Assembly: GCA_050084515.1 (NCBI GenBank)
Contig: CM114271.1
Span: 45,384,001 to 45,448,000 of the forward strand
Reading direction: 5' to 3'
Length of the DNA stretch: 64,000 bases
Source: Blasia pusilla
Taxonomy: Eukaryota
The notes under the pieces were generated by a model. The model was not told where the DNA came from and did no database searches. It was given only the letters and a program-made list of their open reading frames with translations. Below, piece by piece: positions 6,349 through 51,866 of this stretch (within the stretch, counting starts at the first letter, position 1; every line of letters starts with the position of its first letter). A program made the translations under genes and the position numbers.

Positions 6349-8001
6349 GGTCAGAACTTTCCCGATTCCGCAGAAAGCTTATGAATCACCAGAACCTGAC
6401 ACACTCATGGCTCTCTCCATCACGCTTTACATTGGACGGGGTCGCCTAATTTTCGCGATTGGAATCCAACTGGCAATCGTCCTCAGTTAAAATGGAACCC
6501 TGCAATCAAAACCAGGATGACACATGAGGAATCATATCAACCCACTATGAGGAAGATTCGAGTAATCAGTAGTCTGACTGACCGAAGTTTCACAACTACT
6601 TCCTTGTTCATCCGTGAGTCACACGGGGACAAGAAATCACTTATTCGTTCATGCAATCCATCAAGCGATATCATTAATACACATAGTAGGCCTAATTAGA
6701 TCGAAAAGCGATTTTGACACAAGTCACCTCCACTGTTCTTTCTTGAAGTAAGAAGGGGGATTTTTCACTGGAGAAAGGGACAACCCTCTGCGTAGACATT
6801 CTAGTTCAGGAATGCTTGGCGATGAAAGGCGTTACCTTTCATTTGCATTCATCGTGACATCATTAGACTCGAGTTCCTTCGCTTCGAGGAAGCTACCCTC
6901 AGTTTCACTCATTCCATAGCTACTCGCACAAGTTCGGACTGCTAAATTCTTACATCTATGTGTGATAGCTAAGGACCACTGCCTGGGACAATTGATTTCG
7001 TAAGACCTTTACTTTGGCTGCGGTTTTGTACAGATCAAATATTGCAAACTTTCTACATGAAAGTCCCATATCACCAGTAGGTCTTCGTGGACAACAAGAA
7101 CAATCCTTTCATTCATCTACCCTCACTTCTGTCCACCGTCGCACCGCCAAAGGCTACAACAAGCAGTAAATATTGAGTATTATTGAGAGTATTGATGGGT
7201 CTAATGCAGACAGTCGCGGTCTGGTCACTCATGCGGAAATTGCGCCACAGAGCCTACGCCAAAATCCCATGCGCTACCGGAGCTGCGGGTTTCGTCTAGT
7301 AAACTACAATCGCCACCCAGTCCCTGCTAGGTAGATAAATACTGTCGTGAAGAGTTTCTTGGTTCATACCTGGAAACTCCACGACAAAAAACTCGGTGGG
7401 TTAAGCTAAGCAGGCACGCTACAGAAGGGCCACTTAGGTCCTATCTTCACATGTTCCCCACTCCAATCCCATCCTAGTCTTTAGCGCTGTCGTCGGCCTG
7501 TAATCGAAGAGAGCTCTCTCTCTCTCGACAGAGTCTCTAGCGCTGTCATCGTTGCGCAAGAAACTGCGCAACTTGCATCAACTCCACCGCCTGACACAGT
7601 GAAACTCCGACTCCTTATAAGCCTCTACACTCGACATGCGCCGCAACGAAGGCTCTCTAGGTTCCGAGTACAAGTGCATGAAGGTCAAGGCAGTGCGAGC
7701 GCACCTAGAAGCGACCCCGCCAAAACCTAGTGAGCTCTAGATCCACGTTCACATCTCAAACTCCAGCAAAATCAAAGGCAACGCAAACACACCTTCAATT
7801 GAGTTGAAAATTGTTTATCTTCGCGACGCTTTCCCGGGTGGAATCGTCGCAGACCTCCGCATCGGACCTTGGATGTGGTGCTTGTCGAGCACCAGAAACA
7901 AAAGTTCGCGTGCGCTCCTCTCACTGCGTAGAGCACAGAGTGAGAGAGGCCGTGCGCGAGGCGAGTTCGAAATTGTTGCGAAGTCATGGAGCGCACCACA
8001 A

Positions 8002-13300: not shown

Positions 13301-13914
13301 ATCTATCCTGAACATCGGGAGTCAAACATTTTATTTGGACACACTTCGCATACCTCCAATTTTAGAGATGGAGGCGAGCTCTTGTTTCTCAGTTCGTTGG
13401 AGTCATAATTTTGAATCGTTGGGCCTCTAGAATCGTGTTTGGATACAAGCTATATGTGCAAAGTTCATAGAATTTTTTTATTGTGCTTGATGACGGGAAG
13501 TTGCATCGACGAGCATCACATGTTTGTTTACGACATTGTGTTGGCGTGAATCTGAAGTATTCAGTCCATAAATGCAACGCAATTTCAAGGGTAAGCAATC
13601 GATTGAACTGCATTGAAATTGAAAATGGTCTGCATTTGTGAAGTGAAGGATGGTGGATTGAAAGTTTTAAAGGAACAACATCTGAATCACCTCTTGCTGT
13701 AGCACTTCATCTCAATCGTTTAGCCATTATCGTCTCGACTTGAGGAGAAAGGCCACCATCTCCAAAGAATATTTGAATCACAAACATTTGTGAAATCATT
13801 GATTGGGAGTGATCTAATTGAATAGGAATCTTAGCCATTATATTTGGAAGAATATACCTCCCAACGTCATAACACCCGAAGCATAAAATAAAGGAGCGCG
13901 TACACAACGGTGGC

Positions 13915-16900
13915 CGCCCCCAATAACATGCTCAACACATGCCCATCCTAAGCATTAGCAATAGGAGTCGTCGCACTCACTTCTCCCATCGCCCTCCGTG
14001 CCTGCACACCAACAACATCACCAACTCTCCAGGAACTCTGATCAGGAGCCATCAATGGGATCCTCATAGCCTTGGACAACGTGAAAGACTGAGGAAGCAT
14101 GGTCTATTTCTTGGCTTTCCCTCATTGTGGATCCAACTCTCCGGTTGCTCCACACGTCACAACTACAACGGCCTTCATCTAGGCAACCTTGCACATCCAA
14201 CTAGGATCCTCCCTATCTCTGTCTGTTCCATATGATGTCGATGCCACAGATCCGTCATTGGATTACCTCAATGTCATAGTGGCAATCTGCTCCTGTAGCT
14301 GTTGTATGTGAGCAGCCATCCCAGCCTCATGCCTGGCATCTCCCTTAATGAGTCTAGGTGGTGGGACTCTACCTCCTCCATGGGTAGCTCCAGCTCCTCG
14401 TCCCCCAACAGGACCACCAAGTGCATGATCTCTAGGCCCACCCTGACTGGCTACTCGCTCTGGTGCCCTCTCTCGCCCTCAGTCCGGACATAACTTAGGA
14501 TGTAAATTGAAACACCAGGCGCGCGTGTGACTATACCTTTGACAATAGTCACACTGATAAGCTCATGGTGCAACACCATCTCCTCCTCCATGCTGAGGCA
14601 CACGTCCATGACCCTGACGAGTTCAATCACGATGATGATGGGCTCCACCACATGACCAACAAGTAATTATAAGCGGTTGTTGTTGAGCTGCATATGAAGG
14701 CGGATGTCTCTGTGGCACCACCTCCCGCTATGCTCCCTGAGCTTCGTGGTGCCACTATTGACCTATTTCGGAGTCCACGTTGTTGCACTGGTGGTGCAGG
14801 CAATCGTGACTGCTCTCGCCCAGAACCCATGGTGGCTACGCTCTCCTCCGTCATGTTGTGCTCAATATTCTAAGCGGTCCTAAGAACATCTCTTAACGTA
14901 GGGGAGGTGTTCATAAGAAGCATCCCCTCTCGCACCCGTGTCCGCAGGGTCTGGTCCACCATCGCGTACCATGATTGGATAGCCTGAGCCTATGTCACCC
15001 CTTGAGTTATGTTGATCAACCGGTGCAATCGAGTGTAAGCCTCATGCAAACTCTTACCCGGGCGCCTGCAGAAGTCGTGGATGCTCCGCAACTTCTCCGT
15101 CAGTACCCCCTGGTAGCTCCCCCTCAACTCAGCAAAGAACTCAACCATGGGGTTAAACCTGGGACTAACCCGACTAGATGGTGCAACTGCTCCAGTGCGA
15201 GTGATCCCTCCTAAAACATCACTAGTGGAAGAGGAAGTAGCTCTCCTGACTCTTCCTCCTCATCTGGGAACGGCTCCGTCCATGACACATAGTGTGGGTC
15301 ATAGTAGAGTCGTCATGCCTCAATCTCCTTTGCATATATTTGGGAGAACTCATGGTAATCGTCCATGGGCGCCCCCTCTAAATGCTAGAACATACCATTC
15401 CATGTTGTAAACGGGTTGAACTCTCTAGAGTTCCTAGCCCACTGTGAGTCACACCAACTCGTAAACTACGCAATGAAGTCATGTAGCTCTAAAGTGCCTA
15501 CAACACCCGAAAACCTACGTGATCCTCTACCCTAGTCGTCAATCTCATATGCCCGAGTGGTAGGACCACTCAATGTATATGGTGGATCACTAACACACTC
15601 CTCTATACGCTCCTCCTCGTCTGAAGACGACACAGAAGGAGATCGAGATGGTCTCTCACGTGGAGACCCTTGAAACCTTGCACCACTCCAAGTAAACCCT
15701 CTAGAGCTACTCTCAAGTCCACTACCTTGCCTCTCAAAATCATGAAAGGGCGCCGTGATGGCCCTCGTGCCCCTCTCACACGATCACTCTGAATCTCGCA
15801 AGTTATCCCTCAATCACTCAAACTAAACATGCAACACTCAATCTACACTATCTCATTGAGACGTGTGCTATGCGGCAAGAAGCAAGGTGGTGCGGAAAAT
15901 CAACTGATCTATCGTATCATCGACAAACCAACCTCAACTTTGGACATCCCACACGGGTCTATGTTCCCTAAATCAATAATTCATTGATCCTCCTAGCATC
16001 AGCACAAAACCCAATATCCCAAATAACTTCCCAATACCCAAAAATCCCTCACACGTGCAAGGTAAGAGACCATAATGGATAACCAAACAATAATGTCGAT
16101 GTCGCTCCTTGGAAACTGCAAATCTCGACCCCAACTTGCTCGTGAAGACAACTCCTCCTCAATATGCGGTGGAGGTCCAGCGGTCCAGTGCAGCACTGGC
16201 GACACGACACGACACGGCACGAGGGAATGGGGAGCGGCACTCGACGGTATACCCTCCTAAATCATCAATTCACATGCTCCGCTCCTTAGTGAAAGAGCGG
16301 CTCCATGATCGAGACGATGCGGTGCGGCCACGAGCGGCACGACGCGTTGCGGCTACGGGCGTCACGGCACAGTACTCGATCGTTGTTGCACGGATACCAA
16401 TCATAACCTAGCAGCATGAAATGAAAACTCAAATACCATAACCCGAGGTCACTTGCCATCTCTAGTTGATGACCACACTGCGATGATGGTGGTGGCCAAA
16501 ACAAAGTACATAGTGGCAGCAGAAGTCAAAGAATCAACGGTCGTCGTGGAAGACCCTCCACTTCGTAATGGCAACCAAGACTGGACAACAGCCAAACGCG
16601 GCTCTGAGCAGCGTTGTCATATAGTTAAATCATCCGTTGTGTAAACTCCTCTATCATTAAGTGTTAGAGATTTTTATTAGTATTAAGTAAATTAGCCTAC
16701 GAAAATAAAATTTGCATGTTTAAACCTCTTTAGGGTGACTCATTTGTGCAGGCCAAACTTTAGGAAAAAAAAGAAAATAAATAAAAGATGGGATTAGAAA
16801 AGTAAAGTAGTAAGTTGGTGCTTTAATAAAACAAAAGCAAAATTAGTCTTGGTTAGTAGGGTAGTTTGGAAGATATGAAGGAGTAAAAGAGGATATTTTG

Positions 16901-19049
16901 GAAGAGATAAGAGGTAATCTACTTGTGTCAAAATGTGATTGTCTAAACCTTGAGAGGAAGCCATGTGGCACAAGATAAGATTAGCCTTATTTCGTACTCT
17001 TGTGGATCCTTGTGAGTTTATAAAGAGGAGGGACCTTCAAGGGTTCATCACCTTCTACTTCACATCTTAATCCTCTCGTGTCATTCTTGAATGTATGGCT
17101 TTAGTATTGTTGGCTCTTCCAATGAGAGTGGATTCCAGTCTTGCGAGAATAACTTGACCTTGGTCAATTCTTGAGAGGTTTCTAGAGTGTGATATATGTG
17201 GAGATGAAAGATTTATCACCTTAGATGATTTTAGTCGTACTAGAAATAGAGGATAGTTTGGCTTGTTATTTTTGCAATGAGAGTGAATTACCCTTCTTGG
17301 GAGAGCAACTCCGCCAAATCCCATTCTAGAGGAGAGTAGAGGATGTTTGTCAAGTAGGGTTAGGGATGGAGCACCATTTGTGCCAAATTTTCCTTTCCTT
17401 AACCTGTACCACGTTAAGATTCTCTTTGTAGATAGGCACTGGTTCACTCGCTATCTAGTTTATTACTTTGGGGACGCGTTCATGAACCAAGTCCTGCAAT
17501 CTCTAACTTCCGTGATTCTTCTTATAGTCACGTACGGAAGGACATGGGATTGCACTTTGTATGTCCTTATATAGCTATCCATGGACGTTAATAGGCCTAC
17601 TTGAGTAAGGTTTAACACAAGTTATGCTATTTTCCTTGTGTACAAACGTAAAGTATTTTTACAGGGATTTCAAGGTTAAGAATTTTCAGGTTCCATGGTC
17701 TGAAGAAGTGATCACCTCGGCACTACCATTCGTAATTCCTATCGTGAGAGAATGAAGAGTTTACATAATAATTCTATAATAAAAAAGGAGAAATTCTTAT
17801 AGAGTTAAACTTGCATCAACCACGTCTGTTGTAGCTAGAAGGTCCGCCCTTATTCGAAGAAAGACTCTCGACACGACAACGTTAGGCGCCAGAGGCGGCC
17901 AACGGTGGACACTAGATCCTTGACGGTTACGATTGACCATTAATGATGACGACGGACCCTTGATGGTGAGGGTTGACCACTGATCGTTGATGGCGGACTG
18001 TTGACGATGGCTGGTTTAGGGTTTGAACAATTTAACCCAAAAAATTCACCTAGAAAGGCACTTTTGCAAGATTGACCATACTTTTTTTCTCACGACTCTA
18101 AATTATGCACCGTCTATTGCACAGCGTGCACAACTTCATGAACTACGACGGCATCAAAAAATATGTTAAATCAAATATTCCAATAAAAATTGATAGGGAT
18201 TGTCGTAAAGCCCAACGTCTCTTTCTCCTTCATAAAAATTGGCAGCGCTTCCACGTTCATTTCTCCCCAAAAAAATGTGAAACGTGTGAGAACACAAATG
18301 AGCAAGGTACATTGTGCTCCCAAGAGCACCGGCATGGAGGAATCCGCCCCCATACTCAATTCCTATAAAAAATTTGGGCTGAGCTTCTGCGTGCCACTCT
18401 CCCATACACAAAATTAGCAAAGCAAAACAGCAAACTCACACGGCTCTTGCTCGGTGAGCACTCCCATGAGCCATGAAGCGGGAAACATGATCCCCAACAT
18501 GCACCAAACATCGAGCAACCAACGAGCTCCCCCATAAAGGTCTCTCACTCACTCATTCTCTCTTTGTAAAATAAGATCCAATCTCTCTCATGTCTCTCTC
18601 AATGTCAAACCAAACCCACTATCCTAATCAAAGGCTTGGGTTACACACACAAGGCAAGCAAGACCATACCTCCGCCGCCTTATGCCAAAAGGTTCAACAA
18701 AGAGAGAATGAGCTCTAAAGCTCTCTCTCCTTGAGGTATACCCCTCCCATCTCCCAAGCTTTCTCCATGGTAACCTATGCTCCCAAGTCACCTTCTTGGC
18801 TCTTGACGTGATGTAGGAGGTGAAGGGCCACTTACCAAAAATATAAATTTGATCATATACTCAAAATGGTACTTACCTATAATAGCAAGTTCCTCAATAT
18901 GACTCCAAATGAACCCAAACGAAGGGGAAACCTGCTCTCTCAGGTTTACCATGTCGTCAATAGGTCATCCTCAACCTCTTGAGTCTGTCCTCCACTACTC
19001 CCGAAGGCGCTCTACTAGATCTCATCAATCTATCCTAAAAGACATGACA
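13915..19049 (-). mobile_element. Ty3/gypsy element copy 1 (family 1): complete 5' repeat A (18565-19049), 5' internal region and gag with zinc knuckle; pol and 3' end deleted
   Basis: 18100-19049 is homologous to 48950-49789 and 43496-44022. 15370-16420 is homologous to 47150-48300. The minus strand at ~14490-14560 reads CDYCQRYSHTRAWC (CCHC knuckle). The terminus is CATGACA at 19049. Confidence 0.8.
16640..17765 (+). mobile_element. Unrelated ~1.1-kb LTR-like segment inserted in gypsy copy 1
   Basis: Ends TGTAAACTC...GAGTTTACA form a perfect 9-bp terminal inverted repeat (TG..CA). There is an internal TATAAA at ~17018. No TSD is visible. Confidence 0.55.
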
Positions 19050-26975: not shown

Positions 26976-29514
26976 ATTTCATGCGCCTACTTCTCTCAAT
27001 CTCTAGTATTGTCAAAGTGTACGTTCAGTAGATCATGCTCTCCTTACAAATCCTTACCCAAACACACTCTTGTTACCCATTGTTTGGGTCAACTATCCGT
27101 GCGTCTCCTTGAGTTCTCAACTATGGCTATCTAGCAAGCTTAATAGTTCCTACCCCCTCACTTCCAACATGGGCTAGTGTTCCTAGAGTTAGGATAGACT
27201 TCCTAGATAGTCTAGACACCTAAAATAGTGCTCGCGCGCCTGGTGGTTCCAGCTATCCAATGAACCAAAAATGAGTCTCTATCCCAAACCCAAGGATTAA
27301 GTCACAATTGGGTTAACATATGGAATTTTGTCCCTCACACTTGGCATAGTGTCTATACCATGAAGCCAACCTCCCAATCCATTTCGTATCCTTGATTTGT
27401 CCCGCGGTGCCCAAAAGTACAGTTCAAGTCCCAAGCATCCTTTAAAGACGATTCCCCTTATATATAATTAGAGAGATCTCCACCCCCTTCCCACCTTTAG
27501 GATCCTCTTGGACCGCTCATTCTGGCCCTTGACCCAAGTACCAATGTGATAGTTTATGGGCAAGTTCTATGTGTGTAGTAATGTGCGTAGTCGTTTATAT
27601 AGAGTTTCTTGTTTGGCATTGTGTTTTTTAAAGTACTTACTAACAAGTTTATTCACAATTGTAACTTAAGTTTCGTGCCTCCATCTATTTCACAAACTCC
27701 CCATCATCCATATCCCCCTCCATCATGGTCACCAAACTAGAAGCAATGATGACTTCCCATTATGATACAATCTCCAATGGGATACCAAACTCAATTTCAA
27801 CCTCCTTAGCCTCATATTGGGTAAACATCTTAACAACCACCATGGGTAAGTTTACAATTGAGTTACTTGTGATTAACGAATCTTTTTGTGAGAGAGGGAA
27901 CATTACTATGTGAAAGGTGTGTATTTTCCCTCATACAAGGGAGGAGTTATTCCCATCCTCTCCACCTTCATTGGTTCCAGGAAATTGAGTTGGTAATGTA
28001 GACGTGCATCTTAGAAGGACATAATCATGTGCAACATCAAGGTTGATCAAAGATATCACCCCACGAGAAGTTGCAGCAACAAGTATCCTTCCCAACTTAT
28101 AAAATAAATGTTACCAATCCTTATTATTCATGCACACATATGTTCTTTTTTATCTTTAACATATTTTAAACTTTAACACAATCATGGATTTGTTGGGTCG
28201 GTTTGACTTTAAAAGGGAGAAAGGAGAAGTTCTATGAAACGAGATTTGTAGATACATGATGGACATGCTGAAAGAGAGCATAATTTAAAGCCTTCTTTCG
28301 ATTTGTTTCCGAATGGCCATCCATATACGAAGGTTAAAGGTTATGAGCTTTGACTCTTAAAGGAGGGCAAAATGAAAGCAAACAAGTTGGTTTGGGCAAG
28401 GTCCAAGGCTGAAATTTCAATTACAATGGTGCGTAGAGCAAGTCTAGATGGGCTTCATATAATTCACCTTGTTATCTCGCCGATTCAGTCATACATATCT
28501 AAGATTCACAAATGCTTTTACAATAGGGTTTGCTCTTCTGTTCTATATACGTAGGATATAATCTCGATGAAACTTGAGGATGTATTACAAGTGTCTGAGG
28601 TTGCTCTAAGGGTTATACAGCCTTGTAGTAGGATTGAAGGAGGTTAAAATCTTTCTTCGATACAATGTTTCCCCTATCTTTGATTTCATTGATGTCCGTC
28701 TCTAAGTCATTTCCTCTCACCTCATGAACATCTTGGGTACAATATAATTAGTTAGTATCGGCTTTGCACGAAGCATTGATCTTATATATTTTTTGACTCA
28801 AATAAGCATGTTTAGGGAGTTAAGGGCCACTAAATAAGAGATATAAGACAAACAATAACGATTGTAGAGGGTCTTGAGACTATATATTTTCCAAATGATG
28901 AATGGTTTAAACAGCTCCTTCCTTCCACTTATGCAAATGCATGTAGACATTAGTGAGTAGTTATCATGTACAACCATGCTCCCAAAAAAGAAAGCTTACA
29001 TTGCACATAATAGCCATAACCATTCTCGAGAGTTGTTATTTCAATAAGATGGTGCAAAAAAGTAAGGTAGCATCATGGTTACATATATGTTTTCCAATTT
29101 AGAATTCAAATGGAGAATAGTGCAAATCCAAGCCTCGCAAAAATCTAAGCTCTCAAATGTCCTTATTCTTTGTAACATGCGATTGTATGGGTTGCTCGCT
29201 TTTCCGTCTTATTGCGATTATTCTAGCTTATAACACTCTTCCTTAACCTTACGCTTTATTGAGTTAACTTTTGGTGTCACTCATAGAGTAGCTCTCATAT
29301 TAACAACATGAGATAATCTTACACCTCACTAGCCCACTTCTTTAAAATCTTCATCTTCATTTTCTCAAAGTATTATATTTTATGAAATTTCAACATGAGG
29401 ATTGATATTGACATGACTTACGTGTTCTACAAGACAAATTTCTTAGTCTAGTCATTGTTTATTATGTCGTGTCATTGCAAGAGAACTAGGTTAGTGGTTG
29501 GTATAATAAAAGGT

Positions 29515-29937
29515 TGTCATGTCTTTTAGGATAGTTCAAAGAGATTTAGAAGAGGGCATTGGAGATAGTGTAACATAGCCTCATGAGGTCGAAGATGAAC
29601 TGTTGAGGCCACGGATAACCTAAAAGAGCTTGTTTCCCTTTTGTTTCGGCTTATATGTAGCCATATATAGAAACTTACTATTTCAAGTATGTTCCCTTTT
29701 GGAATATAGTTGACTTTGTACTTTGGGAAGTGGCCATTGACCCCCTACAAGAGGTCAAGAGCCAAGGAGGTGACCTTCAAGCAAAGGTTACCGTGGAGAG
29801 GGAAGGGGTATACCTCCAACAGAGATAGCTCATTCTCTCGTTGTTGAACTTCTTGGAATGAGGCGGAAAAACTATGGTCCTCTTTGCCTTGTGTGTGTAA
29901 CCCAAGTCTCTCATTATGAGAGTGGGTTTGGTTTGAC

Positions 29938-30011
<74 letters not shown>

Positions 30012-30178
30012 GTGCACACCGTGTGAGACCTCGTTGTTGTGAGAGATTTTATTCAAGATATTTTGATACTTCTCGTCTCATTGTCTGGATGCCATGAGTT
30101 AGCATGCATTCATGTGTATTTATGTGTATCTTTGGTGACAACGATGTATGTTGTGTAGCGATGTGTGTACGCACGATA
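29515..30178 (+). mobile_element. Solo A-B terminal unit of gypsy family 1 with 4-bp TSD (AGGT)
   Basis: Reverse complement of 43369-44022. Begins TGTCATG and ends CACGATA. Flanked by AGGT at 29511-29514 and 30179-30182. Confidence 0.85.
29941..30008. repeat. (AG)n microsatellite, ~34 units, inside the solo unit
   Basis: Direct reading. Sister copies carry only a few CT units at this position. Confidence 0.97.
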
Positions 30179-33100
30179 AGGTAGACCATGTGGAAAATTT
30201 GGAAAATAATTGAATCACTATATGATATTCTTACCAACATGAAATATCAATATGCTAAGTATCACTACACTAGTCATTCGTAAGATTCCAATTCATAAAT
30301 ATTTTGAATGACTCACAATGACTTTGTGAGTATTGATTTAACAACTACCAATAAGTAGGAGAGCTTTCTTGCACGTACTAACGATGGCTCTTGGAGTTGG
30401 ATGATCATATTTTATATTTATCAATAACGAAACGAGTTAAGTCATTGAAATTTGACAAAAATATTGTGTACTATGTAAGCGACTACATGAGTTGCCATGT
30501 GTAGCATGTAAGTAACTACCTTAGTTTTGATATGGAGGGAATAATTAGAATACTCATTCCCACGCGTATTTATGAGTCAAAATTAATCGATTGTCAAAGT
30601 TGATTGACTACGAGAGTCATTATTTAATGTTTAATAGAGTAATACTGAATTGGTTACTTTTTCATTGATTTACTTATAGTATATGACTTGGCATGTTGTT
30701 ATTGTACAACTAAAGTAGTTATTAGTTTTAGGAAACTCAAGGTTATTATCCATTCATTTGATGGGTAAGAATGTGGCTAATAGATATAGCCACCTTTGCT
30801 TGTCAAGTTGGATATGCAGCATGAGTCAAACATGTACAAGTTTGTTGTTAACATTGAAAACGATGCTAGATTAGGCCTTACAGTATTAAGCATTGTAACA
30901 AGATAACATCGAATACTACATCATAAGACTATCATTTTCTATAAAATTGAACATAGAAAATAGTTTGTTCACTAACACAAACAAGTACTTGGTTCCATTC
31001 ATTTCCAAAAATACATGGAGAATTAAAAGAACTCGTTGTATACAAACAAATATTAAACAAAGTTCTTTAGTAAAGCCAAATAAGCATCCTTTGGAACCTG
31101 AGAATATTGGTAAAAAAAAATGGCATGATGCTAGAACGCGAGTGGTTGCGCAAAGAAAAGCGAAGGCGAGAATGATCTAAATGGTGGTCAAGATATCCAC
31201 TTTGTAACGATCTAGGTTCTTGACATGGAAGGTCTGTCTGACATGGTCTGCTTCAAATTTCTTCCAACTTTTATGGCCTTGAAGATTTCTCGAGAGCAAT
31301 ACACACCGATCATCCAAGGGCGAGGATGATCCAACCTTGTAAGGGAGAGTGCAAGGCTAAGTAAGGATGAGCATTAACTAGGTCGAGATGGGCGCAGTTG
31401 AGATGAGCTCACAAGGAATAAGTACGCTCTGGAAATGAGCGCTACTAGGAAGTATGAGCGCGAGTGCTTTATTTTTCTTGATTTTTTCCTACCTATTTTT
31501 TTCTACTTCACTCACATTTAAAACATCAATTTGACCTCTTCTCTTGTTTTCTCCCTCTACTTCATCTTTTATATTAATTTTCTTTTTTTAACCCTTATTT
31601 TCCCATTATACTTGGTGTTAGTTTTAAAAATATTGAAATTTTAATATAGAGTATAATAATTCATTTTGGGAAAAGGTCTCCATCTACTCAACTTATTTCA
31701 TTGATTATTTCAATTCATCCCATTGTTTATTTGTAACCTTGTGTGCTAATATCTCTACCACATTAGTCTATATTTATGTCAACAACATGATTAGGAGGAT
31801 GGATAATCTTGCACTTCGTGATATCAACAATTTTCTAATTACATTTTGATATGTTGAAGTAACCAATACGCAATCGTTACAATATTCCAACATTTGGTTA
31901 CATTTCATGTATTATCTTTGTTTTTATGTGCATTATTGCTCTTCCCAATGGGTCGAATTATTTCATATGTAGAATTTCCGCTTTTTATTTTATTTTTACT
32001 TCCTCTTATAGGATTAGTGCGATTATGAAAAATTACTCCAGGCCGAGTGCCCAAAAAAGAGGAGATGAAAGAAATCAACAATCCGTGTGACTCATTCAAT
32101 CGTCTTCTATCCATGGGCCGTATCTTATTACCATGGTAATCTTTAGTATGCATATTCTGAGGTTTTTTATACAACCTTCTTTTAACCAATCTTCAAACTT
32201 CGCATACTTTTTATTCCATAATTCTAACTTCTATTCGTGATTTTTGAAATAGATTGCATGGGGATATAAAAATGAAGATGACATATTTTTGCAAAGACTT
32301 TAGTACTCAAAAAATATAAATCAACGATCTATCCTAGAGAGCATAATAGAAAAAAATCAAGCCTACCTACAAGGAAGAGGTGGTGTTTCTCCTTTATTTA
32401 TTGAGGCCATATGTGATGCTCCATTTACCATCATCAAATATCTATTGAAATCCATGATTCATAATCTTTTAAGATATACTCATTTAATGCATCGAATTGT
32501 TGAGCAAGCCTCTTTATTAGTCATGGATTAAATGTCTCTTTCGAGATTGCTCATTTATTAATTCTGATTTTTGTTGAGAGAGTTATACAAGTCTCTAATC
32601 CGATAATTCAATCTTACACAAATTTGCAACTTTTGGGAGAGAGATATTCAATTATTAAGATTATGAGGAAGTATCGACCATGTCATCTATTGTTATACTA
32701 TTAGCTCTATGTTATAAACATGCCCTTTGTGCTATTCCCTGCATTGGAAGTATGAAAAGTTGGGTACAAGGTTTCATAACTTATCCTTTGATATGTATTG
32801 TGATCTTATTAGTATTCTCTAATTAATCGAAAATAAAATTACCTATGTAGGACATATCGTATAATAGGGTTATCAAATAAAACTTAACGTAGATATTTTC
32901 TTCAATGAAAAAATGGATGACAAGTCTATGATAGTCAAAGGAACAAGATCTAGCATAATGTTCAGATCGATAAGAAGATTTTATGGTATAAATTCAAACA
33001 TCGATATATAGTGAAACTGGCGAATAAGTCATAAATCTCAATGAGTAACATAAGAAATATGGGAATATGAACTTGCAAAGGCAACAAAGTCTTTCCTTAT

Positions 33101-34534: not shown

Positions 34535-37500
34535 TGTTGTGCGCATACACATCGCTACAAAACCCACATCGCTGGTCACATCTACACACCACACAACACC
34601 GATCTTCCCAACCATAAGTCGATCAATCCATAAACCAAACAACTCAATCATATACATCGAGACCCCACACAAAATACATGAGTATGAAAAACGGCTCACG
34701 TGCCGTAAAACTCCACTCATGAATCTACATTGACATATCGAGCCACATCCACCCTCCGTTATGAGGAAATCTGGATGCTAGCACCCTAGCTGCTACACAC
34801 CCACACACACATACACATGCAAGAAAGGTGCTCTTAAGGCTCAACATGAGAAAGATGGCATGAGAAAGCCATCTCCCTCGCTCTTATACCCTTGGGAAGA
34901 GCCTTTTGGCTCTTCCCCCCAAAATAGCCCTCCCAATGGTAACCTACGTGCATAGGTTATCGGGTGACTGTTGACTTGGTCATCGGGTTATCTGACGAAC
35001 TGAAACCAAAATAGAAAAATTTCCATAAACAACGTCCCTAACACAATAGACCTATTTCTAACCTCATCCGACATCTAGGGATGAAGTTACTCTCACGACA
35101 GTCCGCTGGCTCTCTATGCCGTCACCACAATAGATCTCTATCTATCGACTACTAAGATGTGACAATTATCGTGCGTATACACATCACTACATAACCCACA
35201 TAGCTAGTCACATCTACACAACACACAATACCAATCTTCTCAATACATCGGTCGATCAATCCATAAACCAAATAACTCACACATATATATCGAGACTCCA
35301 CAACCGCCCCCTAGTTGGCAGTTGGGTGCTCCTAACTCTAGATAGTAAACATCTATGTATCTGACATGATCTACTATTCTATACATATATAGCACCATCG
35401 ATGCCATCGTCCCCGCAACACTGCCACACTACAGCAATCCGCCGTGTTGATCCGTCCGAAAACACTCTCGTACCCTACGCCAAACGCTACCACATGACGC
35501 ATGTGGTACCCGCATACATGAAATCTCTACCCTAAGAGCACGATTGTCACCCGACTCCATCTGCTCCAAGACATAAGCACGGCTCCACGCTTGCCTCTTA
35601 AGCTCATCTACAATCCATGTAACTCACCGCTCATCTCCAAGAACAATAAAGAAGCTTTGCACCATAGGAAGAGACACCCACCCTGACATGTCTCTCTATG
35701 GGACTATCCGCTACAGAAATATCCTATGCATGTATGCTCCTCTCTCCAAATTATCTGCTCAGCTAACACCGCATGTGAATGCTGCCAACGTGGTCACTGT
35801 ATCCTCGGGTGGCGGACCACCACTACCTCCTGCAAGTTGCACTGGTAGATGGCTCACTCGTCCATCACTTGATCGCCATCCTCGCCGATAAGAAATTTTC
35901 TCCTCTCAAAAATCCATAATGATCCTAAGGGAATACAACACCATACTCCCTACCAACATACAACTCTATCGGTGTCATAATCGCATGAGTGCGCGCGATC
36001 GCACTATCTGTCTCATGCTCTGGCTGGAGTCTAAACACTAACTCATGTCAAGTCATGTAGTGCATGGATGAAACGCCCCCAATAGAGGGTTGTATCTGAA
36101 AGGAACAATGCTTGATGTTTCCTTTCCGTAAACCCAATGCCAAACACGCTGCATTCTCTAACATCAAGGGATGCACTCCCAAATCAAGTAGGATACGTTG
36201 CGGGTGATACACCGTACTTGTGGGACTAACCAAGCAAAACACTCTAGCTCGGATATCCAACAACACCACATGGTGTGATCATGTCTCACTCTATTGTTGG
36301 CCTAGCTTGCATATCTACCAACTTCGCTGCCGCAACATGCCATGACTTTGTGGAAGACGTCCCGAGCACGTGCTCCGAGGGCAAGTCCACCACCTCCTCA
36401 ACTACCTCTGAACGAGAGGCAATCATCTCTCCGCGCTCACACAATGTAGCAACCAGCCAAAACACCTCCGTTGGTCTCACTCCCATCGTCGCCAACTCCA
36501 TGGTGGAAAACAACAAAGTCAAGCTCATCCTAGTGGCCACCTCCAAAAACGTGGTCCACACTAGCTCCACCTGAGTTGGCATAGAACTCGTGTCTCCAAC
36601 TCTTCATGAAGTGGATGCACCTGCCTTACCCATGGGTACTACTGGTCATTAAGGCATCATAAATGGTGTACGCATTGCCTGCAACAACGTGAACGACTGG
36701 GGAACCCTTACCTGGCACCCATCAATCTCCTTATGTGGGTCAATCTCAACCCCATCTCTCGATGGCTCAATTACTCTTGTAGCACCTCGAGTCACCATCA
36801 TAGCAGCTCAACTTGAGCCGCACTACACATAAATCCCATACCAGCAGAATCCTCACAAGTATCGTGGTAAGATGTGGAGGCAAGTGCCACACTAGCTACT
36901 CTCGGCTCCGTGCCTGCCCTTAGCTGCATCATTATCATGGCAGCAATCCTCTGCTCCAACTGATCGATGCGAGTAAGGAGCGCTGCATCAGGTGCACGTC
37001 CTCCATCCCTTGTGACTGGTGATGGAACTCTACCACCACGATCATCCACTACTTGATCTCCACCAACCCTCTTGCAACCAAGTCCTCTACCTACCTCAGG
37101 ACATACCTCTCGGAGAAGATGAAAATACCTATCCCTAGTGTGAACGGATCGATGACAATGATCACACTACAACTATGGTGAGGCCATCCTAGGTGGCTCT
37201 TGAGCAATTAGATGCGCCCTCAGCCCTTTACTATGATGTGGGTAGTCCCTCCACCTATGTGGTCCATCACACGTCCAACAAGCCCACCCTAGTCCTTGCA
37301 AGGTAACATATATCGGTACGGTTGTTGCCTTATTGGCTCACGATATCCGCCCTGCTCTCTAGGCCCATCGGCCCGCTCCGGTGGTACGGGTGCATGGAGG
37401 ACCACCTGTGGCTCTACTCCTACTCGTGGACCCCTTGAATCTCAAAAAAATCGTGTGGTCACAACCTGCTCCCAGATCATGTTGAGCTCTATCCACTCAG

Positions 37501-40260: not shown

Positions 40261-40416
40261 TATTGATATGAGCTCGAGGAGGAGTATTGAAGATTGAATT
40301 ACATTCAAACTCATTAGACATAAACTACTATATTTTCTACTTACATGAAGTAGGAAAAACTTAATCTTTGGTTAAGTATTTAAGCATGATTGTCTTAACT
40401 AGGTTTAGTTAATCGT

Positions 40417-43368: not shown

Positions 43369-46300
43369 TATCGTGCGCATACACATCGCTACATAAGATA
43401 TATCGGTGTCACCGAACATACACACAAACACACACAATCCGATGCTAGCTCATGACATCCAAACAACGAGACGAGAAATACCAAAATATATCCAATTTAA
43501 ATCAATGAAATCTCTCATCACATCTCACACCAAGCTCTCAATGGTGTGCACTCTCTCTAATGTCAAACCAAACCCACTCTCCTAATGAGAGACTAGGGTT
43601 GCACACATAGCCTCCTAATGAGAGGCTAGGGTTACACCATAGCTCCACCGCCTCATGCCAAGAGGTTCAACAATGAGAGAATGAGCTCTCAAACTCTCTC
43701 TCTTGGAGGTATATCCCCTTTTCCTCTCCCAAGTCCTCTCCATGGTAACCTATGCTCGCAGGTCACCTCCTTTGATCTTGACTTGTTGTAGCGGATCAAG
43801 GGTCACTTACCAAAGTGGAAAGTTAACTATATCAAATACAATAAAATACCTAAAATATCAAGTTTCTAAATATGGCTCCAAATAAGCCAAAACGAAGGGA
43901 AAACCTGCTCTCCCAAGTTATCCGTGGCCTCAGTAGGTCATCCTCGACCTCTTGAGGCTGTCCTCCAGTATCTCCAAAGGCGTGCTACTAGATCTTGTCG
44001 ATATTTTCTAAAAGTTGTGACAATTGTCGTGCACATACACATTGCCACACAACATACATCATTGTCATCGAACATACATACAAACATGCATGATTCGATG
44101 CTAACTTATAGCATCCAAAGAACAAGATGAGAAGTACCAAAATATCTCTAATCGTCCCCCTAGTTGGTGGTTAGGTTCCTCTAACTCCATACAACCATCT
44201 ATCCCTACCTACCATGACATACATCTCTCAGACGCTAAGAGCAAAAATGTCGGGTGCTCATGTGGCCCCATCGTTAGTAGTCTTTCTGTCATCCATCTCA
44301 CAGACATGAGTCGGAATCTATCACTACCTACTCTATGTACATTTGGGACACATCCATTATCCCCGAGGAACCCTAGTGAGAGGTGGCGTCAAACATGCCA
44401 TATGCCATCATCTCAAACATCCATCATAGACTAGCATAGTAATTTCACCAATGGCGGAACCACACAACATACATCGCAAGCCTGCAGGAACTACTACTAA
44501 GCTCAGATTGACTGTACCGTCAATGTTAGGAAGATGATATGACGTACAATTACACACTTGGTCCTTCCAAACCATACCATCACGTCCCTCCAATAAGACA
44601 ACACTATATGGCAAAATCCCATGCACTCTCAAGATGGTGTGCCCTATAGTCACATCCAACGTCGTGGGTGTCATTTGCTGCAAGTAGACATAGTCTCCCT
44701 CATGAAACCTCCAGATAGTAGGTTGATAACCACCTTCATGACTAGTCGCATACCTCAATGTATCCCGATGTTGCGCAGTCGCCAAGTTCTCAAACGCCAT
44801 GGGCATCACTCTCCTAAATAACTCAACCCTTCGAGAACATGCTCGCATCCATACATCACGGTCATCAAGGTTCAACACCTCACCAATGGCAACAAGTAAA
44901 TGGGGCTCTCGGCTACAAAGTAGAAAGTACGGTGAGATATACGCTAAAGATGTTTGCCTGCTGAATCTGTATCCCATCGCCAACCATGACAACTGGAGGT
45001 TCCAATCTCTTAGGTGATCTCTCTACAAGCCATACTTGCTCAATCCTCTCTTCACCGTCTACACAACCCTCTCCGCTAGTCCATCCGCCTCAGGATGATC
45101 TCGCAAAGTGGTGCGTTGGTCGATCAACGCCTAATCACACTAGGCTTGAAACTCCCCGCGAAACTCTGTATCATGGTCTGTCAACACCTCAATTAATGCA
45201 CTGTAATGACTTAACACCCCAATCTAGGAAGGCATACGCTACTCCCTCAATCGCTTTGTCGGGAAATGCAACCAACTCTATCCAATTCGAGAAGTGGTCG
45301 ACCATCACCAACACATAACGAATATGGCACTTCGTCAAAGGTAAAGGTCTTGCAAAATCCAAACTCCATCTATAACTTAAACCCATGATAAGAAGTGGAT
45401 ACAACTATGGAGTCAGAGCATTGAACGATGCTCGGACCCTATCACACACCATGCATTGGCAACAAACTGCTGAACATCACTGTGCATACCTCGCCACCAA
45501 TATTGTATCTGGAGCAAGCTGTACGTCCGCTTCACTCCAAAATGACCCGAATCCTCGTGGGCATGATGCACTAGACGTGCTCTCTGTGAAGGATGGGGCA
45601 CTACACGCACTATATCCTCCTCCCAAACGTGCAACACATGTGTCCCCTCCCACCGGAACCGTCTGGCTTGCTATACGATCTGATCCCGCTCTCTAGCAAC
45701 CACTATGCTCGCGACGTTGCCTTTTTGCTGGTACTCCAAGACAACTCCATCGTCGTGAATATCACGGCCACCTGTCGTATCCTCACCCACCTTTGGACCT
45801 AAAGACTCTCCATCAGACCTTGCCATCGAAGTCTCAGCAATCTGGCTCTCCATAGCCAAAAAGCCCAAATAGGCTAACCTGTGCCATCTTGGCACCAACT
45901 CCTCATCACTCTTACCATGCCAACGAGCTTCAATCGCGTCTCATTGACTCAAGCATGAGTTATGACTCAAACCACATGTATCCTAACGAGCATCCTAATT
46001 GAGCATCCTAAGCCTATGCACCATTTGGAAATCATACTCCTACAACAACAGAGCCCACCTCGCAAGCTTCCCTGTAAGCTTGTCGGACTCCATCAACCAC
46101 TTAAGTGGCTGATGATCAGTAATAATGATAAAGGGGTGAGCATGGCTCCAAGCCCCAACATGCTCCAATCGGTAAGCAATTGGAAAGGACGCCCTGTGAT
46201 GGGTCTCCTTACTATGGGCACGGACGTCAATCAGTCCTTGAGCGGCTAAAATGCTCTTTCTTGGTCATCCCCCTAGTGCCACTTCTGATCCACCTTCCTA

Positions 46301-49300
46301 AGTTGGGTGAGCAGCTTCGCAATCGAAGCAAAACCCTTGAGGTACTATCGATAGAAGTTTGCCAATCCCATGAATGCACGAACTCGACTCACATCTGTAG
46401 GATATGGAATGCGTGAAATAGCCTTTATCTTTGTCTGGTATACACCAAGGCCCCTTGGATATATGGTATGACCTTGGTACTCAATCAGGTTGTAGAAGAA
46501 CTTGAATTTTCCTGGATGTAGCTTCGGCCCATATAACTGCAACCGTCGAAACGCTTCCTCTAGATGTCACTCATGCTCCTCAACCGTGACGCTAAATACT
46601 ACGATGTCATCAAGATAACATCTAGCAAAATCCAGACCTGCCAAGATCCTATCTTTGACCCTCTAAAAACTGAACGGGGGCGTTCTTTAACCCAAAAGGT
46701 AAGAACCACCATTGGTACAAATAATCCTTCCCATGAGGATCGATGCCCCAAAATGCCGTCTTCTGCGTATCTTCCAAATTGATAGGCAATTGATGGTACC
46801 TGGCTCAAAGATCTAGCAAATTGAAGACCTTTGCATGCCAAATAACATCAAAGATCTCCTCAGGCGTGAGCAAGGCATGTATACCTATCGGACTTTGTCT
46901 ATCGATTGATAGGTCGGTAATCTCCACACAACCGCCTATCCGTCCAATTGCCATGCACATCCTTCTTGGTGGGCATGATAATGGCAGATGCATACTCTCC
47001 ATGTGACATTTCCACTATTCTGCTCCAACCAAGTCATGGATCCTACTCTAAATCAGAGCCCTCTCAATGTCACTGTACCTGAAGGATCGTCGGAAGATCA
47101 GCGTGTCGCTCGAAAACTCAATGCAGAGTAGAGTTGCCATGCCTCAATCTCTTGGGCATATCTATGGGACAACTCATGGTAGTTGTCCATGTGTGCCCTC
47201 TCTAAATATTGGAATATACCGTTCCATGTTATGAATGGGTTGAACTCTCTAGAGTTCCTAGCCCGCTGTGAGTCACATCAACTCCTAAACTCCGCAATGA
47301 AGTCATGTAACTCTATAGTGCCTATAGCACCCGAGAACCTACGCAATCCTCTATCCCGATTGTCCATCTCCTACGCCCAACTGGTAGGACCATTCAATGT
47401 GTGCAATGAATCACTAACACACTCCTCTACACTCTCCCCCTCATCTGAAGACGACATATAAGGAGGTCAAGGCGGTCCCTCACGTGGAGGTCCTCAAAAA
47501 CCTCGCGCCACTCCGCGTAAACCACTATGGCTACTCTTAAGTCCACCATCTCGCCTCTCAAAGTCTCGGAAGGACGCCATGATGACCCTCGTGCCCCTTT
47601 CACACAATCACTCTCAATCCAGTGAGTAATCACTCAATCATTCAAACTAAACATACGGCACTTAATCTACACTCTCGTACTGAGACGTGTGTTGTGCGCG
47701 GCGTGATGCCAAAAATCGGCTGATCTAACTTCTCATCGACAAACCATACCCTTAACTGTGGATATCTTACACAAGTTTATGTCCCCTAAACCCATACATC
47801 AATGATGCTCTCATCATCCACACAAAACCTAATATCCCCAAATAACTACCCAATACTCGGAAATCCCTAACACGTGCAGGGCAAAATACCAGAATGGATA
47901 ACCTGAACAAATATCGATTCTCCTCTACAACTGCAAACCTTGATCCCAACTCGACCGTGAAGAAAAACTCCTCCAAATAGCACGTCGTACTCTCCTGATA
48001 CTGACAGTGATCAAATCTCCTCGATGTGCATTGCGGGTCCAACAATGCAGTATGGCATTGGCGGCACGGAACGGCTACAACCAGCACGACACTCGGGCAT
48101 GGAATGCGGCACTCAACGGCATACCCTCCTCCAGAAAAAAAAACATAATGTGCTCCCCAAGAATGGTGCGACTCCGCGATCAAGACGGTGCGGTGCGGCT
48201 ACGAGCGGCAGGACGTGGCAATCGGCCTAGCGTTCCGGCTATAGGCAACACGGCACGGTACTCGATCGTCGTCGAGCATTTACCACCTCAAGACATAGCA
48301 AGGCTAGAAGAGAAATGCGGCCCTAACAATCCAAAAAAAGAAACTGTCCAATCAACAAAGGTGACAAATGCCATCAACGACGATCAACGGACGGAGCAAG
48401 GATGGACCAATATCCGGGAAAAACGGTAGAAATAATTTCGATTCAGTTTGCTACCGGCCAAAAAAGGGAGGGATGGTCTGTTTGCGATTGGAATCGAAAA
48501 CTTGAAAATTTGCCGCTCGGTTTTGTAGAGACCGGAAATGTACCGGTTGTCACGAAAAAACTCCCCGGACCCTGGGATGGACTGAATGGACGGTGAAAGT
48601 CAATACTAATTACAATATCTTTCATGTGGATAAATATGGTTCTTTTTTAACCTTATTCAAAAAGTTAAAGTTTTTTTGTTTTTCCCCACTCTACTAACTC
48701 CTTCAACTAAGGGTCAACTCACTAAAATTATTCACATTTGGTTTATACTCCACTAAGCCCCATAAATATTGGATCAACATCCACAAAATAAAATTTTCAT
48801 TCACTTTAACCTCAAGATCATAAGTTTCATTTGTCCTTTCTCCAATAATAAAATATTTTTATTTTTTCTACCTCAACTAAGAAGTTACCAAGAATTTCAA
48901 AAATTGCTCCTTCTTCACGCGGTGGGTATGGTAGCTCCACAAAAATGATCATAACTTCTTACTCACATGTTTAAATTACGCATCATTTCTTCCATAATGT
49001 GCATAGCCTTTGGATCTATGACCGCGTTCATTTTTTTTCCATTCAACATTCCAAACAAAACTAACGGGGAATGTCATGCAACCCTTCAATCTGCACTCTT
49101 ACGAAAAAATCGCCAACAATTCCGCGCTAATTTCTCCCAACAAAGAGTTCAAACCTATAAAATCATAAATCAGAAAGGTACATTATGCTCCCAAGAGCAC
49201 CGGCATGGGGAAATCCTCCCCCATACTCAATTCCTACAAAATTTGGGCAGCGCTTCCGTGCGCCACTCTTCCACACGAAAACTCGGCAAAGAAAACAACA

Positions 49301-49789
49301 AAATCAAACGGCTCTTGCTTCGGTGAGCACTCCCATGAGCTGTTGAATGGGAAACACAGTCTCGACCTGCACCAACAGCGAGTGACCAACGAGCTCCTCC
49401 ATTGAAACTCCCTTACTCTCTCATTCTCTCTTTGTAAATCAATGAAATCTCTCATCACATCTCACACCAAGCTCTCCATTGTGTGCACTCTCTCCCTCTC
49501 TCGTGTCAAACCAAACCCACTCTCCTAATCAGAGGTTTGGGTTATACACACAAGGCAAGGAGGACCATAGTTCCGTCGCCTCATGCCAAGAGGTTCAACA
49601 ATGAGAGAATGAGCTGTCAAGCTCTCTCTCTTGGAGGTATTCCCCCTTTCCTCTTCCAAGCCCTCTCCACGGTAACCTATGCTCGCAGGTCACTTCCTTG
49701 GATCTTGACCTACTGTAGCGGGTCAATGACACTTCCCAAAGTAGAAATTCAACTATACACAAAATGGAAACTTACCCAAACTAGTAAGG
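43369..49789 (-). mobile_element. Ty3/gypsy element copy 3 (family 1) inside the satellite: B 43369-43494, A 43496-44022, B' 44025-44150, pol, gag, truncated 5' A 49434-49789
   Basis: The repeats are directly visible. PPT AGGGGGACGA lies on the minus strand at ~44152-44162. RT, RNaseH, integrase and PHD remnants lie inside in gypsy order. Confidence 0.92.
44335..47080 (-). pseudogene. Gypsy pol: RT - RNase H - integrase (HHCC, rve core) - PHD finger; frameshifted
   Basis: RT reads KKDVHGNWTDRRLCGDYR, TPEEIFD, LLDL, FGLKNAP, CYLDDI, KLHPGK and VRAFMGLANFYR. Integrase reads HAHEDSGHFGVKRT..YWWRGM and WSLDFARPLP..LVMVDHFSNWIE. The C-terminus reads CMLCGS..MLVYDGCLR*WHMACLTPPLTRVPRG*WMCPKC. Confidence 0.92.
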
Positions 49790-51866
49790 TCCACATTTTC
49801 CCCAAGGTGTATGTTGCACTCTTCCAAAGTTTCAAGCAAAATGGAGTTGTGAGCAAAACCGCACAAATTAACAACTCCTTTGGAGATCCGAACGATCAAA
49901 CCTTGATTGAAAAGAAGGTTTTTCCATTCTTCATCTTGTCCAACTTTCTCATCTTGAGCTAAAATTTGGCTTGCACCCTCTCTAAGGTGCATCCAACTCT
50001 CTTGCCAAGTTTCCACGAAAATAGAGTTGGGAGCACAAGCTCAAAAATTAATAATTCGTTTTTGGACCCAAACCAGCAGACCTTCTATCAAAATAAGGTT
50101 TTTTCATTTTTCATCTTGTCCAAATTTTCCATCTTGAGCTGAAATTTGGCCCACAAGGTCTCCAAGGTGCATCTTACCCTCTTGCCAAGTTTCAAGGAAA
50201 GTAGAGTTGGGAGCACAAGCTCAAAAATTAATAATTTCTTTTTGGACCCGAACCATCAGACCTTCTATCAAAATAAGGTTTTTTCCTTTTTTATCTTGTC
50301 CAACTTTATCATCTTGAGTTGAACTTTGGCCCACCAAGTCTCCTAGGTGCATCTAACCCTCTTGCCAAGTTTCAAGCATAATTTATTGGGAGCACAAGCT
50401 CGAAAATTGGTAAGTCCTTTTTTGACCCGAACCATGAGACCTTCTATCAAATTAAGGTTTTTTCATTTTTCATCTTGTCCAAATTTCCCATCTTGAACTA
50501 AAATTTGGAATTTTCCCCAAGATTCGTATTCCACTCTTGTCAAGTTTCAAGAAAAATGGAGTTGTGACCAAAACCTGAAAAATTAGTAATTCCTTTTTGG
50601 ACGCGAACTATCAAACCTTGAATGAAAAGAAGGTCCTTTCATTTTTCATCATGTCCAACTTTCCCATCTTGACCTAAAATTTGGCTCACATGGTACCCAA
50701 GATGCATGTTCAATTTTTGCCGCAAAATGGAGTTGTGAGCAAAACCTTACAAGTTAATAATTCCTTTTTGGACTCGAACCATTAGACCTTCTATTAAAAT
50801 AAGGATTTTTCAATTTTCATTTTGTCCAACTTTCCTATCTTGAGCTGCACTTTTGCCCACATGGTCTCCAATTTGCAAGTAGCTATCTTGCCAAGTTTCA
50901 AGCAAAATGGAGTTGGGACGACAAGCTCAAAAACTGGTAAGTCATTTTTTTACTTGAATCTTCAAACCTTCCCAAGAAAATAAGGTTTTCTCATTTTTCA
51001 TCTTCTCCAACTTTCCCATCTGAGTTGAGTTGAAATTTGGCCCACATTGTCTTCAAGGTGCATGTTCCACTCCTGTGAAGTTTCAAGAAAAATGGGGTTG
51101 TGAGCAAAACTTCACAATTTAATAACTCCTTTTTGGACTGAACCATCAAACCTTCCATAGAAATTAGATTTTTTCATTTTTCATCTTGTCTAATTTTCTC
51201 ATCTTGAGATGAAATTTGGCCCACATAGTCTCCAAGTTGTATTTTCTACTCTGGCCAAGTTTGAAGCAAAATGGAGTTGTGAGAAAAACCTCATAAATTA
51301 ATAACTCATTTTTGACCCGAACCATCAGACCTTCCATAGAAATAAGGTTTTCTCATTTTTCATCTTGTCCAAATTTCCCAATTGAGTTGAAATTTTGCCC
51401 ATATGGTCCCAAAAGTGCATGTTCAACTCTTGCCAAGTTTCAAGCAAAATGGTATTGGGACCACAAGCTCACAAATTTGCAAGTCCTTTTTGGACCCGAA
51501 CCAAGAATCCTTCTATCAAAATAAGGTTTTTTCATTTTTCATCTTGTCCAAAATTTTCATTTTGAGTTTAAATTTGGCTCACATGGTCCTCGAGGTGCAT
51601 GTTACACTTTAGGAAAGTTTCAAGGAAAATGGAGTTGTGAGAAAAACCTAAAAAATTAATAACTCCTTTTTGGACCTGAACCATCAGACCTTCTATAGAA
51701 ATATGGATTTCTCATTTTTCATCTCATCCAAATTTTGTCTATTGAGCTGAAATGAGGCCCACATGGTATCCAAGGTACATCTAGCACTCTTGCCAAGTTT
51801 CAAGCAAAATGGAGTTGGGACCACAAGCTCAAGAATTGGTAAGTCCTTTCTTGACCTGAACCATCA
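49790..51866. repeat. 180-bp tandem satellite, array 2 (~11.5 monomers), same orientation as array 1
   Basis: Same monomer, registered at 49930, 50110, 50290, 50469 and onward. Confidence 0.97.

Follow-up and report, generated by a model that had tools for sequence, protein, structure and literature searches.

A solo end repeat and the permuted termini of a Gypsy family in Blasia pusilla point to probable integration through an internal palindrome

Introduction

Split direct repeats in retrotransposons are treated as a mark of the tyrosine-recombinase (YR) elements, among which DIRS elements are described as lacking target-site duplications (PMC8969392); in Trypanosoma cruzi, SIRE corresponds to the A2-B2 part of one such element, VIPER (PMC6681497). 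KnitGypsy-Dnmt3 of Klebsormidium nitens carries Gypsy domains together with a Dnmt3-like DNA methyltransferase (DNMT) in Pol (de Mendoza et al. 2018, PMC5890265), and the legend of Fig. 4c of that paper gives it the repeat structure of a DIRS element and the domains of a Gypsy. Here we analyze a stretch of 64,000 nucleotides of the Blasia pusilla genome (the window; assembly GCA_050084515.1, contig CM114271.1, positions 45,384,001 to 45,448,000), in which a solo unit made of two repeat segments, A and B, belongs to a Gypsy family with the plan A-int-B-NN-A-B, where int is the internal region and NN a two-base spacer.

In the parts of PMC5890265 covered here, and in a word search of its supplement, the target duplication, polypurine tract (PPT), primer site, palindrome, solo units and mechanism were not found. 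The full-text literature, with most subscription papers, theses and Repbase beyond its reach, yielded no second paper using the name "KnitGypsy" and no account of a mechanism for this clade. The architecture is already in print, in the form of a figure legend, and the integration mechanism is likely to be undescribed.

Results and discussion

The solo A-B unit in the window

The solo unit occupies positions 29515-30178 on the forward strand (664 bp). Its repeat A (about 29515..30050), 85% identical to its best family match and 81% on average, begins with TGTCATG, and its repeat B (about 30051..30178), linked to A by an A|B joint of the one-A type described below, ends with CACGATA. Copies of AGGT flank the unit on the same strand at 29511..29514 and 30179..30182. 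The arrangement AGGT|TGTCATG...CACGATA|AGGT, on which the original prediction was built, can thus be read directly at 29511-30182. The unit ends TG...TA and the family TG...CA; the last A is the element's own final base (family end CACGACA) and not part of the host. Within repeat A lie a decayed copy of the predicted self-primer sequence, with one change relative to young copies (29829..29843, forward strand), and an expanded (GA)34.5 microsatellite (29940..30008, forward strand).

One exact 4-bp match on its own is weak evidence, as it is expected by chance about once in 200. The target, however, is a low-copy repeat whose two flanks give 14 and 10 matches, and the other copies serve as paralogous empty sites. 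Eight loci were aligned, representing seven places (L214 and L217 are the same place); the insert is missing in all seven, with the sequence continuing across the site, and the 4-mer is single-copy in all four places where the alignment reaches the site from both sides, which confirms the AGGT duplication. The target itself (29381-29514 and 30179-30400) is AT-rich and without known identity; it may be a non-autonomous element of some age. Most probably the solo was left by ordinary recombination within the Gypsy family, and its value lies in confirming the family's integration termini.

Termini and target-site duplications across the family

Three queries (A, the 3' end and the B-A junction) were run against the 390-Mb assembly. 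Each yielded more than 5000 candidates at first look and 40 were scored per query; the counts below refer to this best-match sample. Both ends were recovered for 19 of the 25 whole elements tried, with L036, L047 and four of five extra places giving no 5' A. A 4-bp duplication at A-start and B-end is exact in 15 of these 19 and within one mismatch in 18, and among 19 solo A-B units it is exact in five and within one mismatch in 12. In a mismatched-pair control, exact 4-mers occur in 0.0-0.6% of pairs and 4-mers within one mismatch in 4-5%. These family-wide duplications, together with the empty sites, uphold the proposal that A-start and B-end are the true integration termini, and they support the staggered DDE-type cut postulated along with it. 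The length of 4 bp also stands. The alternative of a 5-bp duplication (AAGGT), obtained by counting the element's last A, was rejected since it holds in only 4/38 cases (1/19 solos and 3/19 whole elements), and exact 5- or 6-bp duplications are absent from the 19 whole elements and 19 solos. The target sites display no NCGN preference; such a preference has been reported for Phygy elements (PMC6317226).

The order of the segments is equally regular. Among 141 distinct A starts (loci L001-L160), 85 follow an internal 3' end plus B and two follow B in rearranged places, 20 have flank before them and the internal 5' region after them, 19 belong to solo A-B units and 15 were left unclassed within their locus. 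B precedes A2 after the internal 3' end in 85 of the 87 junction-type A starts. Conversely, 89 of 209 distinct B ends lead into A: 86 of them after an internal 3' end, two after internal sequence with the start of B deleted and one in a tandem. The original prediction had set solo A-B against solo B-AT-A units as a test of the termini, and the sample holds 19 of the former and no solo B-NN-A among the 89 B-to-A junctions.

Coding content and classification

Whole copies are about 10.2 kb long, and the family comprises thousands of candidate matches. Their open reading frame (ORF) fragments specify gag-like sequence, a DNMT piece, reverse transcriptase (RT), RNase H (RH), integrase (INT) and a C-terminal PHD finger; the Pfam domains occur in the order RVT_1, RT_RNaseH, Integrase_H2C2, rve and PHD, the only sign of a protease (PR) is a motif picked out by eye, and no chromodomain was matched in the family ORFs scanned. 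The D, D and E residues of the integrase are invariant or nearly so in 15 homologs and can also be read in the ORF of L041; the named homologs come from Pleodorina, Tetrabaena, Haematococcus, Chlamydomonas eustigma and Klebsormidium. The DNMT piece gives a PF00145 match below the cut-off (E=0.002), and its best match among solved structures is DNMT3A (E=9e-4); tblastn with the DNMT region of homolog P0010 returns E values of 1e-12 to 1e-21 in four of four family copies. The INT-PHD ORF of the family shares 44% identity with the K. nitens protein P0099, which has no DNMT match on record, sits on a long branch and may not be the KnitGypsy-Dnmt3 protein itself. In a 23-row integrase tree, midpoint-rooted and with P0099 on its long branch, the family and P0099 fall on the same side of a 100/99 split from the chlorophyte rows.

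The order PR-RT-RH-INT with a DDE integrase, the TG...CA ends and the 4-bp duplication are all those of Ty3/Gypsy elements, whose duplications measure 4-6 bp. What the family does not share with them is a pair of complete long terminal repeats (LTRs): the PPT and the primer site bound B-GC-A instead, B is missing from the repeat at the element's 5' end, and an extra B stands at the 3' end. We class the family as a Gypsy that bears DNMT and PHD, with an architecture that is known but unexplained and an integration route that is likely undescribed.

Primer site, polypurine tract, palindrome and joints

In the reverse transcription of LTR elements, the PPT and the primer site bound the repeat. 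In this family the last base of the PPT is followed immediately by B1, and directly 3' of A1 lies a 15-16-nt site complementary to A around position 338; the PPT border is fixed across copies, that of the primer site likewise, and no tRNA primer site is found directly after A1. By that rule, the reverse-transcribed LTR would be B-NN-A and the cDNA B-A-int-B-A. Across 17 elements the self-primer complementarity is perfect over 15 nt in nine, extends over 8-14 nt in six and is missing in two. It reaches 16 nt if the border is shifted by one base, is the longest of 580 start positions tested, and the pairing is present in the predicted fold. In the chimeric locus L175, internal-B-AC precedes the 5' A, displaying an unpermuted B-A repeat between PPT and primer site. 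Rearranged ends are seen in L125/L199, L071, L175, L029 and L026 (B-GC-B, internal-B-internal-B-A-B and internal-B-AC-A-primer site-B); they may be aberrant strand transfers or joins and could serve to order the steps.

The B-A junction is a palindrome, GACA-NN-TGTC, whose half-sites are the element's termini; the intact sequence of this predicted integrase site is GACAGCTGTC. Its spacer, at first taken to be AT, is in fact variable (AC 34, AT 17, GC 16, GT 11 and other 7 of 85), and in the distant relatives described below it is GC. An origin from flanking DNA, as in the circles of the IS3 family, was rejected because 78 of the 85 spacers are purine-pyrimidine variants of GC; the variants would fit C-to-T decay of CAGCTG on either strand.

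The A2|B2 joint differs between copies. Of 92 such joints 72 could be parsed, with one A in 54, two in 17 and none in one, and each of the five commonest A-end types includes both the one-A and the two-A form; one A|B joint retains two primer-site bases and a few carry small deletions. From its sequence the joint looks as if it were remade in each cycle, and such variation is expected if the right end differs according to where the primer is cut and is then joined bluntly. B2 in turn resembles the B1 of its own element, rare alleles common to the two numbering 49 against 8.9 +/- 3.0 in 2000 shuffles (69 units). Among indexed sequencing runs no RNA run was listed as carrying the family. In three raw RNA runs of one study under the same species label, with reads that are 88-99% like the reference and hence come from other copies, sense depth is 99-197 over B1, 123-345 in mid A2 and 18-34 over B2. 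The allele sharing and the low RNA over B2 together make B2 most simply a DNA-level copy of B1.

A proposed integration route

We consider it probable that the solo is the end repeat of an A-int-B-NN-A-B Gypsy element that integrates via a cut at its internal palindrome, and that it was left behind by recombination between the two A repeats. The RNA of such an element would start near A position 338, prime itself, as Tf1 does, and end within A2. Reverse transcription would yield a linear B-GC-A-int-B-GC-A, the ends of which would be without integrase sites, the right one being ragged through primer cuts one or two bases apart. Blunt joining of these ends would create the A|B joint, and the integrase would open the left GACA-GC-TGTC by cutting both strands just behind their CA, leaving the standard 2-nt overhangs, after which the processed half-site ends would be inserted with a 4-bp stagger. 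The genomic form would then be a circular permutation of the cDNA, shifted by one B length. The ends could be joined first and cut later, in a 2-LTR circle, or joined only once both halves are inserted, and the data fit both. Later A1 x A2 recombination would leave A-B with the duplication intact. The solo agrees with this last step, which the original prediction had put forward, but does not by itself prove it, as a double cut of the intermediate would give an identical unit.

More generally, we lean toward the view that a Gypsy clade of algae and early land plants gave up integration from its cDNA ends: it would prime itself, join its ragged ends and be opened by its own DDE integrase at a conserved internal palindrome, with one of two identical sites chosen by some mark. 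How that choice might be made is a matter of guesses: end loading close to the PPT, an RNA primer that stays in place, or methylation by the DNMT that the element encodes.

Several points weigh against this route. The joined intermediate would hold two identical palindromes, only the left of which ever appears as a terminus, a bias that is unexplained; among 54 distinct 5' A repeats (27 from the A-start census and 27 newly fetched) none is joined to a preceding A|B unit (A|B-NN-A-int-B). Integrase cutting and the cDNA or circle intermediates are themselves predictions from sequence. The family counts derive from the best 30-40 matches per search and not from a genome-wide census. The expectation that other solos would carry duplications at these ends was borne out only in part, since seven of the 19 have at least two mismatches in the 4-mer. 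Two of the seven carry a short upstream remnant of B, and the remaining ones may be old or recombinants between different copies. The allele sharing between B1 and B2 could also stem from gene conversion, microsatellite variation near the end of A may deepen the drop in RNA depth, and the reads of the three runs show neither an RNA start site nor a poly(A) site.

Alternative explanations

The solo could instead have been inserted directly, both palindromes of the joined intermediate being cut so as to free A|B with two processed ends. The geometry permits this, the 12 of 19 solos with a 4-bp duplication within one mismatch are what it would produce, and 7 of 93 B1 ends run directly into flank, as those of the partner A-int-B would. 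Such A-int-B forms, however, also arise from B1 x B2 recombination; of four places of this kind only L195 has both ends, and it has no duplication, while the other three fetched are truncated or rearranged. Moreover, the right palindrome is seemingly uncut (0/54), and the seven solos without a 4-mer match suggest recombination between different copies. We therefore regard direct insertion as unlikely.

A different possibility is an RNA that starts with A1 and includes all of B2, with an inherited joint and reverse transcription that makes a linear TG...CA DNA directly, as has been proposed for split-repeat elements; the PPT and primer site would be relics. Such an RNA would explain why there is a single permutation, and some sense RNA does cover B2. 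Yet two repeat sets of unrelated sequence keep the PPT exactly at B-start and the self-primer site exactly at A-end, each of the five A-end types shows both joint forms, B2 tracks the B1 of its own element, and RNA falls several-fold before B2; this account appears quite improbable.

As to a YR element of the Ngaro/PAT/VIPER kind, the A1-int-B1-A2-B2 plan is the same (PMC8969392, PMC6681497), but the D-D-E integrase, the variable 4-bp duplications and the lack of any PF00589 tyrosine-recombinase match in the genome, a weak negative, make it extremely improbable. The premise of the original prediction that YR insertion usually proceeds without duplication agrees with PMC8969392 on DIRS elements. 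Finally, that A-B is an ordinary LTR reading TG...CA, whose 5' copy lost B by chance and whose AGGT pair is one of the roughly 1 in 200 coincidences, is scarcely credible given that the examined 5' ends run from A straight into the primer site without B, that the extra B stands before A2 in 85/87 junction-type A starts, and that empty sites confirm the duplication.

Implications

Circular or internally cut cDNA as a substrate of integration is an old question in retroviruses, for which it represents a minor pathway at best. In this transcribed family, with its thousands of matches, all copies sampled bear the mark of such a route, which makes the question directly testable. If the proposal is true, this would be a retrotransposon with cleavage of unbroken DNA as its normal route, and a DDE counterpart of the split-repeat YR elements. 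The A-int-B-A-B plan is in any case not diagnostic for YR elements. Tools that need two TG...CA LTRs plus a duplication would miss this clade or misplace its boundaries; the REXdb search had that requirement (PMC6317226).

Other elements in the window and distant relatives

A decayed member of the family lies on the reverse strand at 43369..49795, between two 180-bp tandem arrays. It consists of a remnant of A1 without its first ~153 bp, the primer site, and a gag remnant fused by deletion to RT-RH-INT-PHD, followed at the 3' end by PPT, B1, AT, A2 and B2. All on that strand, the self-priming site follows A1 directly (49420..49434), the PPT (44153..44161) directly precedes B1 (44025..44152), the palindromic junction CGACA-AT-TGTCA, an uncut copy of the predicted integrase site, is at 44018..44029, and A2-B2, the counterpart of the solo unit, is at 43369..44022. 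The arrays of ~180-bp units (40416-43368 and 49788-51866; 72-76% matches, ~12 copies each) include an inverted part at 40417-41214 and are out of phase on the two sides, which, together with the missing ~153 bp of A1, indicates a deletion that probably followed insertion into the satellite. The 5' part of a second member (13860..19049, reverse strand) retains A1 (19049-18567), which the solo also matches, the primer site, an interrupted leader and gag, and has no 3' end.

A sister family, whose A and B differ in sequence but follow the same PPT-B-AT-A-B plan, contributes a 3' end at 34535..35312 on the reverse strand, where B1 ends at 35167, A starts at 35164 and B2 ends at 34535; it spans 34535-36400 on that strand, with a partial match at 39770-39985, and similar foreign B ends are found among the 13 "other" B ends of the B-end census. 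Of the 13 ORFs of the window that were scanned, 11 had no Pfam match. None was found for the stop-free frames at 696-6378 (reverse strand; 245, 659 and 684 amino acids), and 56016-56834 (forward strand) matches PH_SMPa in its first 46 residues (E=6e-13) and is probably an exon of a host SMP-domain gene.

Relatives with flanks were sought beyond this genome: metagenome contigs gave two loci without 3' ends, viral contigs none, and prokaryote genomes seven. Of these seven, L204-L206 are informative, L207-L208 stop short and L209-L210 are only distantly related. L205, with Pol at ~65% DNA identity and unrelated repeats, has at its 3' end the plan PPT-B-GC-A-B, with B1 and B2 identical over 106 bp and the junction CACGACA-GC-TGTCACG. 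L204 has a 13-nt self-primer match, and L206, 46% identical to the query in protein, has a 16-bp palindrome without a mismatch in an equivalent position; both look like collapsed repeats, so that B-A-B is seen in L205 only. L204 and L205 (CADCWO01) and L206-L208 (PUMO01, PWFW01) are eukaryotic Gypsy contigs in bins labelled cyanobacterium, Mollicutes and Halanaerobiaceae, likely through bin contamination, L205 being filed under the cyanobacterial bin and probably misbinned.

Comparison with known systems

REM1 is a PHD-bearing algal Gypsy element. Another PHD-bearing element, Gypsy-7a_cRei of Chlamydomonas reinhardtii, is active (PMC9940879); the legend of Fig. 6A of that paper mentions LTR subparts and a left LTR that stops 8 bp short of the end of the right one, and these 8 bp could be a short B. 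Compared by legend only, it lists PHD before INT, unlike the C-terminal PHD here. Tf1/Sushi and Tcn1, like the family described here, have no tRNA site and a primer site complementary to the 5' repeat (PMC6317226), but combine an ordinary LTR-int-LTR plan with a chromodomain, in place of the PHD and DNMT of this family.

A mechanistic parallel is the foamy virus integrase, which cuts the palindrome of the 2-LTR circle junction (PMC1180852), so that a retroviral-type integrase makes processed ends from an unbroken palindrome, as is predicted here from sequence. In the virus, that palindrome arises where the two cDNA ends meet, and the provirus is collinear; in this family, the palindrome lies inside the LTR, the end junction would be kept, and the element is permuted. 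In plan, Ngaro, PAT and VIPER are close, with the same split direct repeats A1-int-B1-A2-B2 and, in SIRE, a likeness of the solo A-B unit; they have a tyrosine recombinase without a DDE integrase and generally no target duplication, whereas this family has a DDE integrase, a PPT, a self-primer and 4-bp duplications (PMC8969392, PMC6681497). KnitGypsy-Dnmt3 shares with this family both the Dnmt3-like DNMT in Pol and the A-coding-B-A-B repeat arrangement, with few copies reported (PMC5890265) as against thousands of candidates in Blasia.

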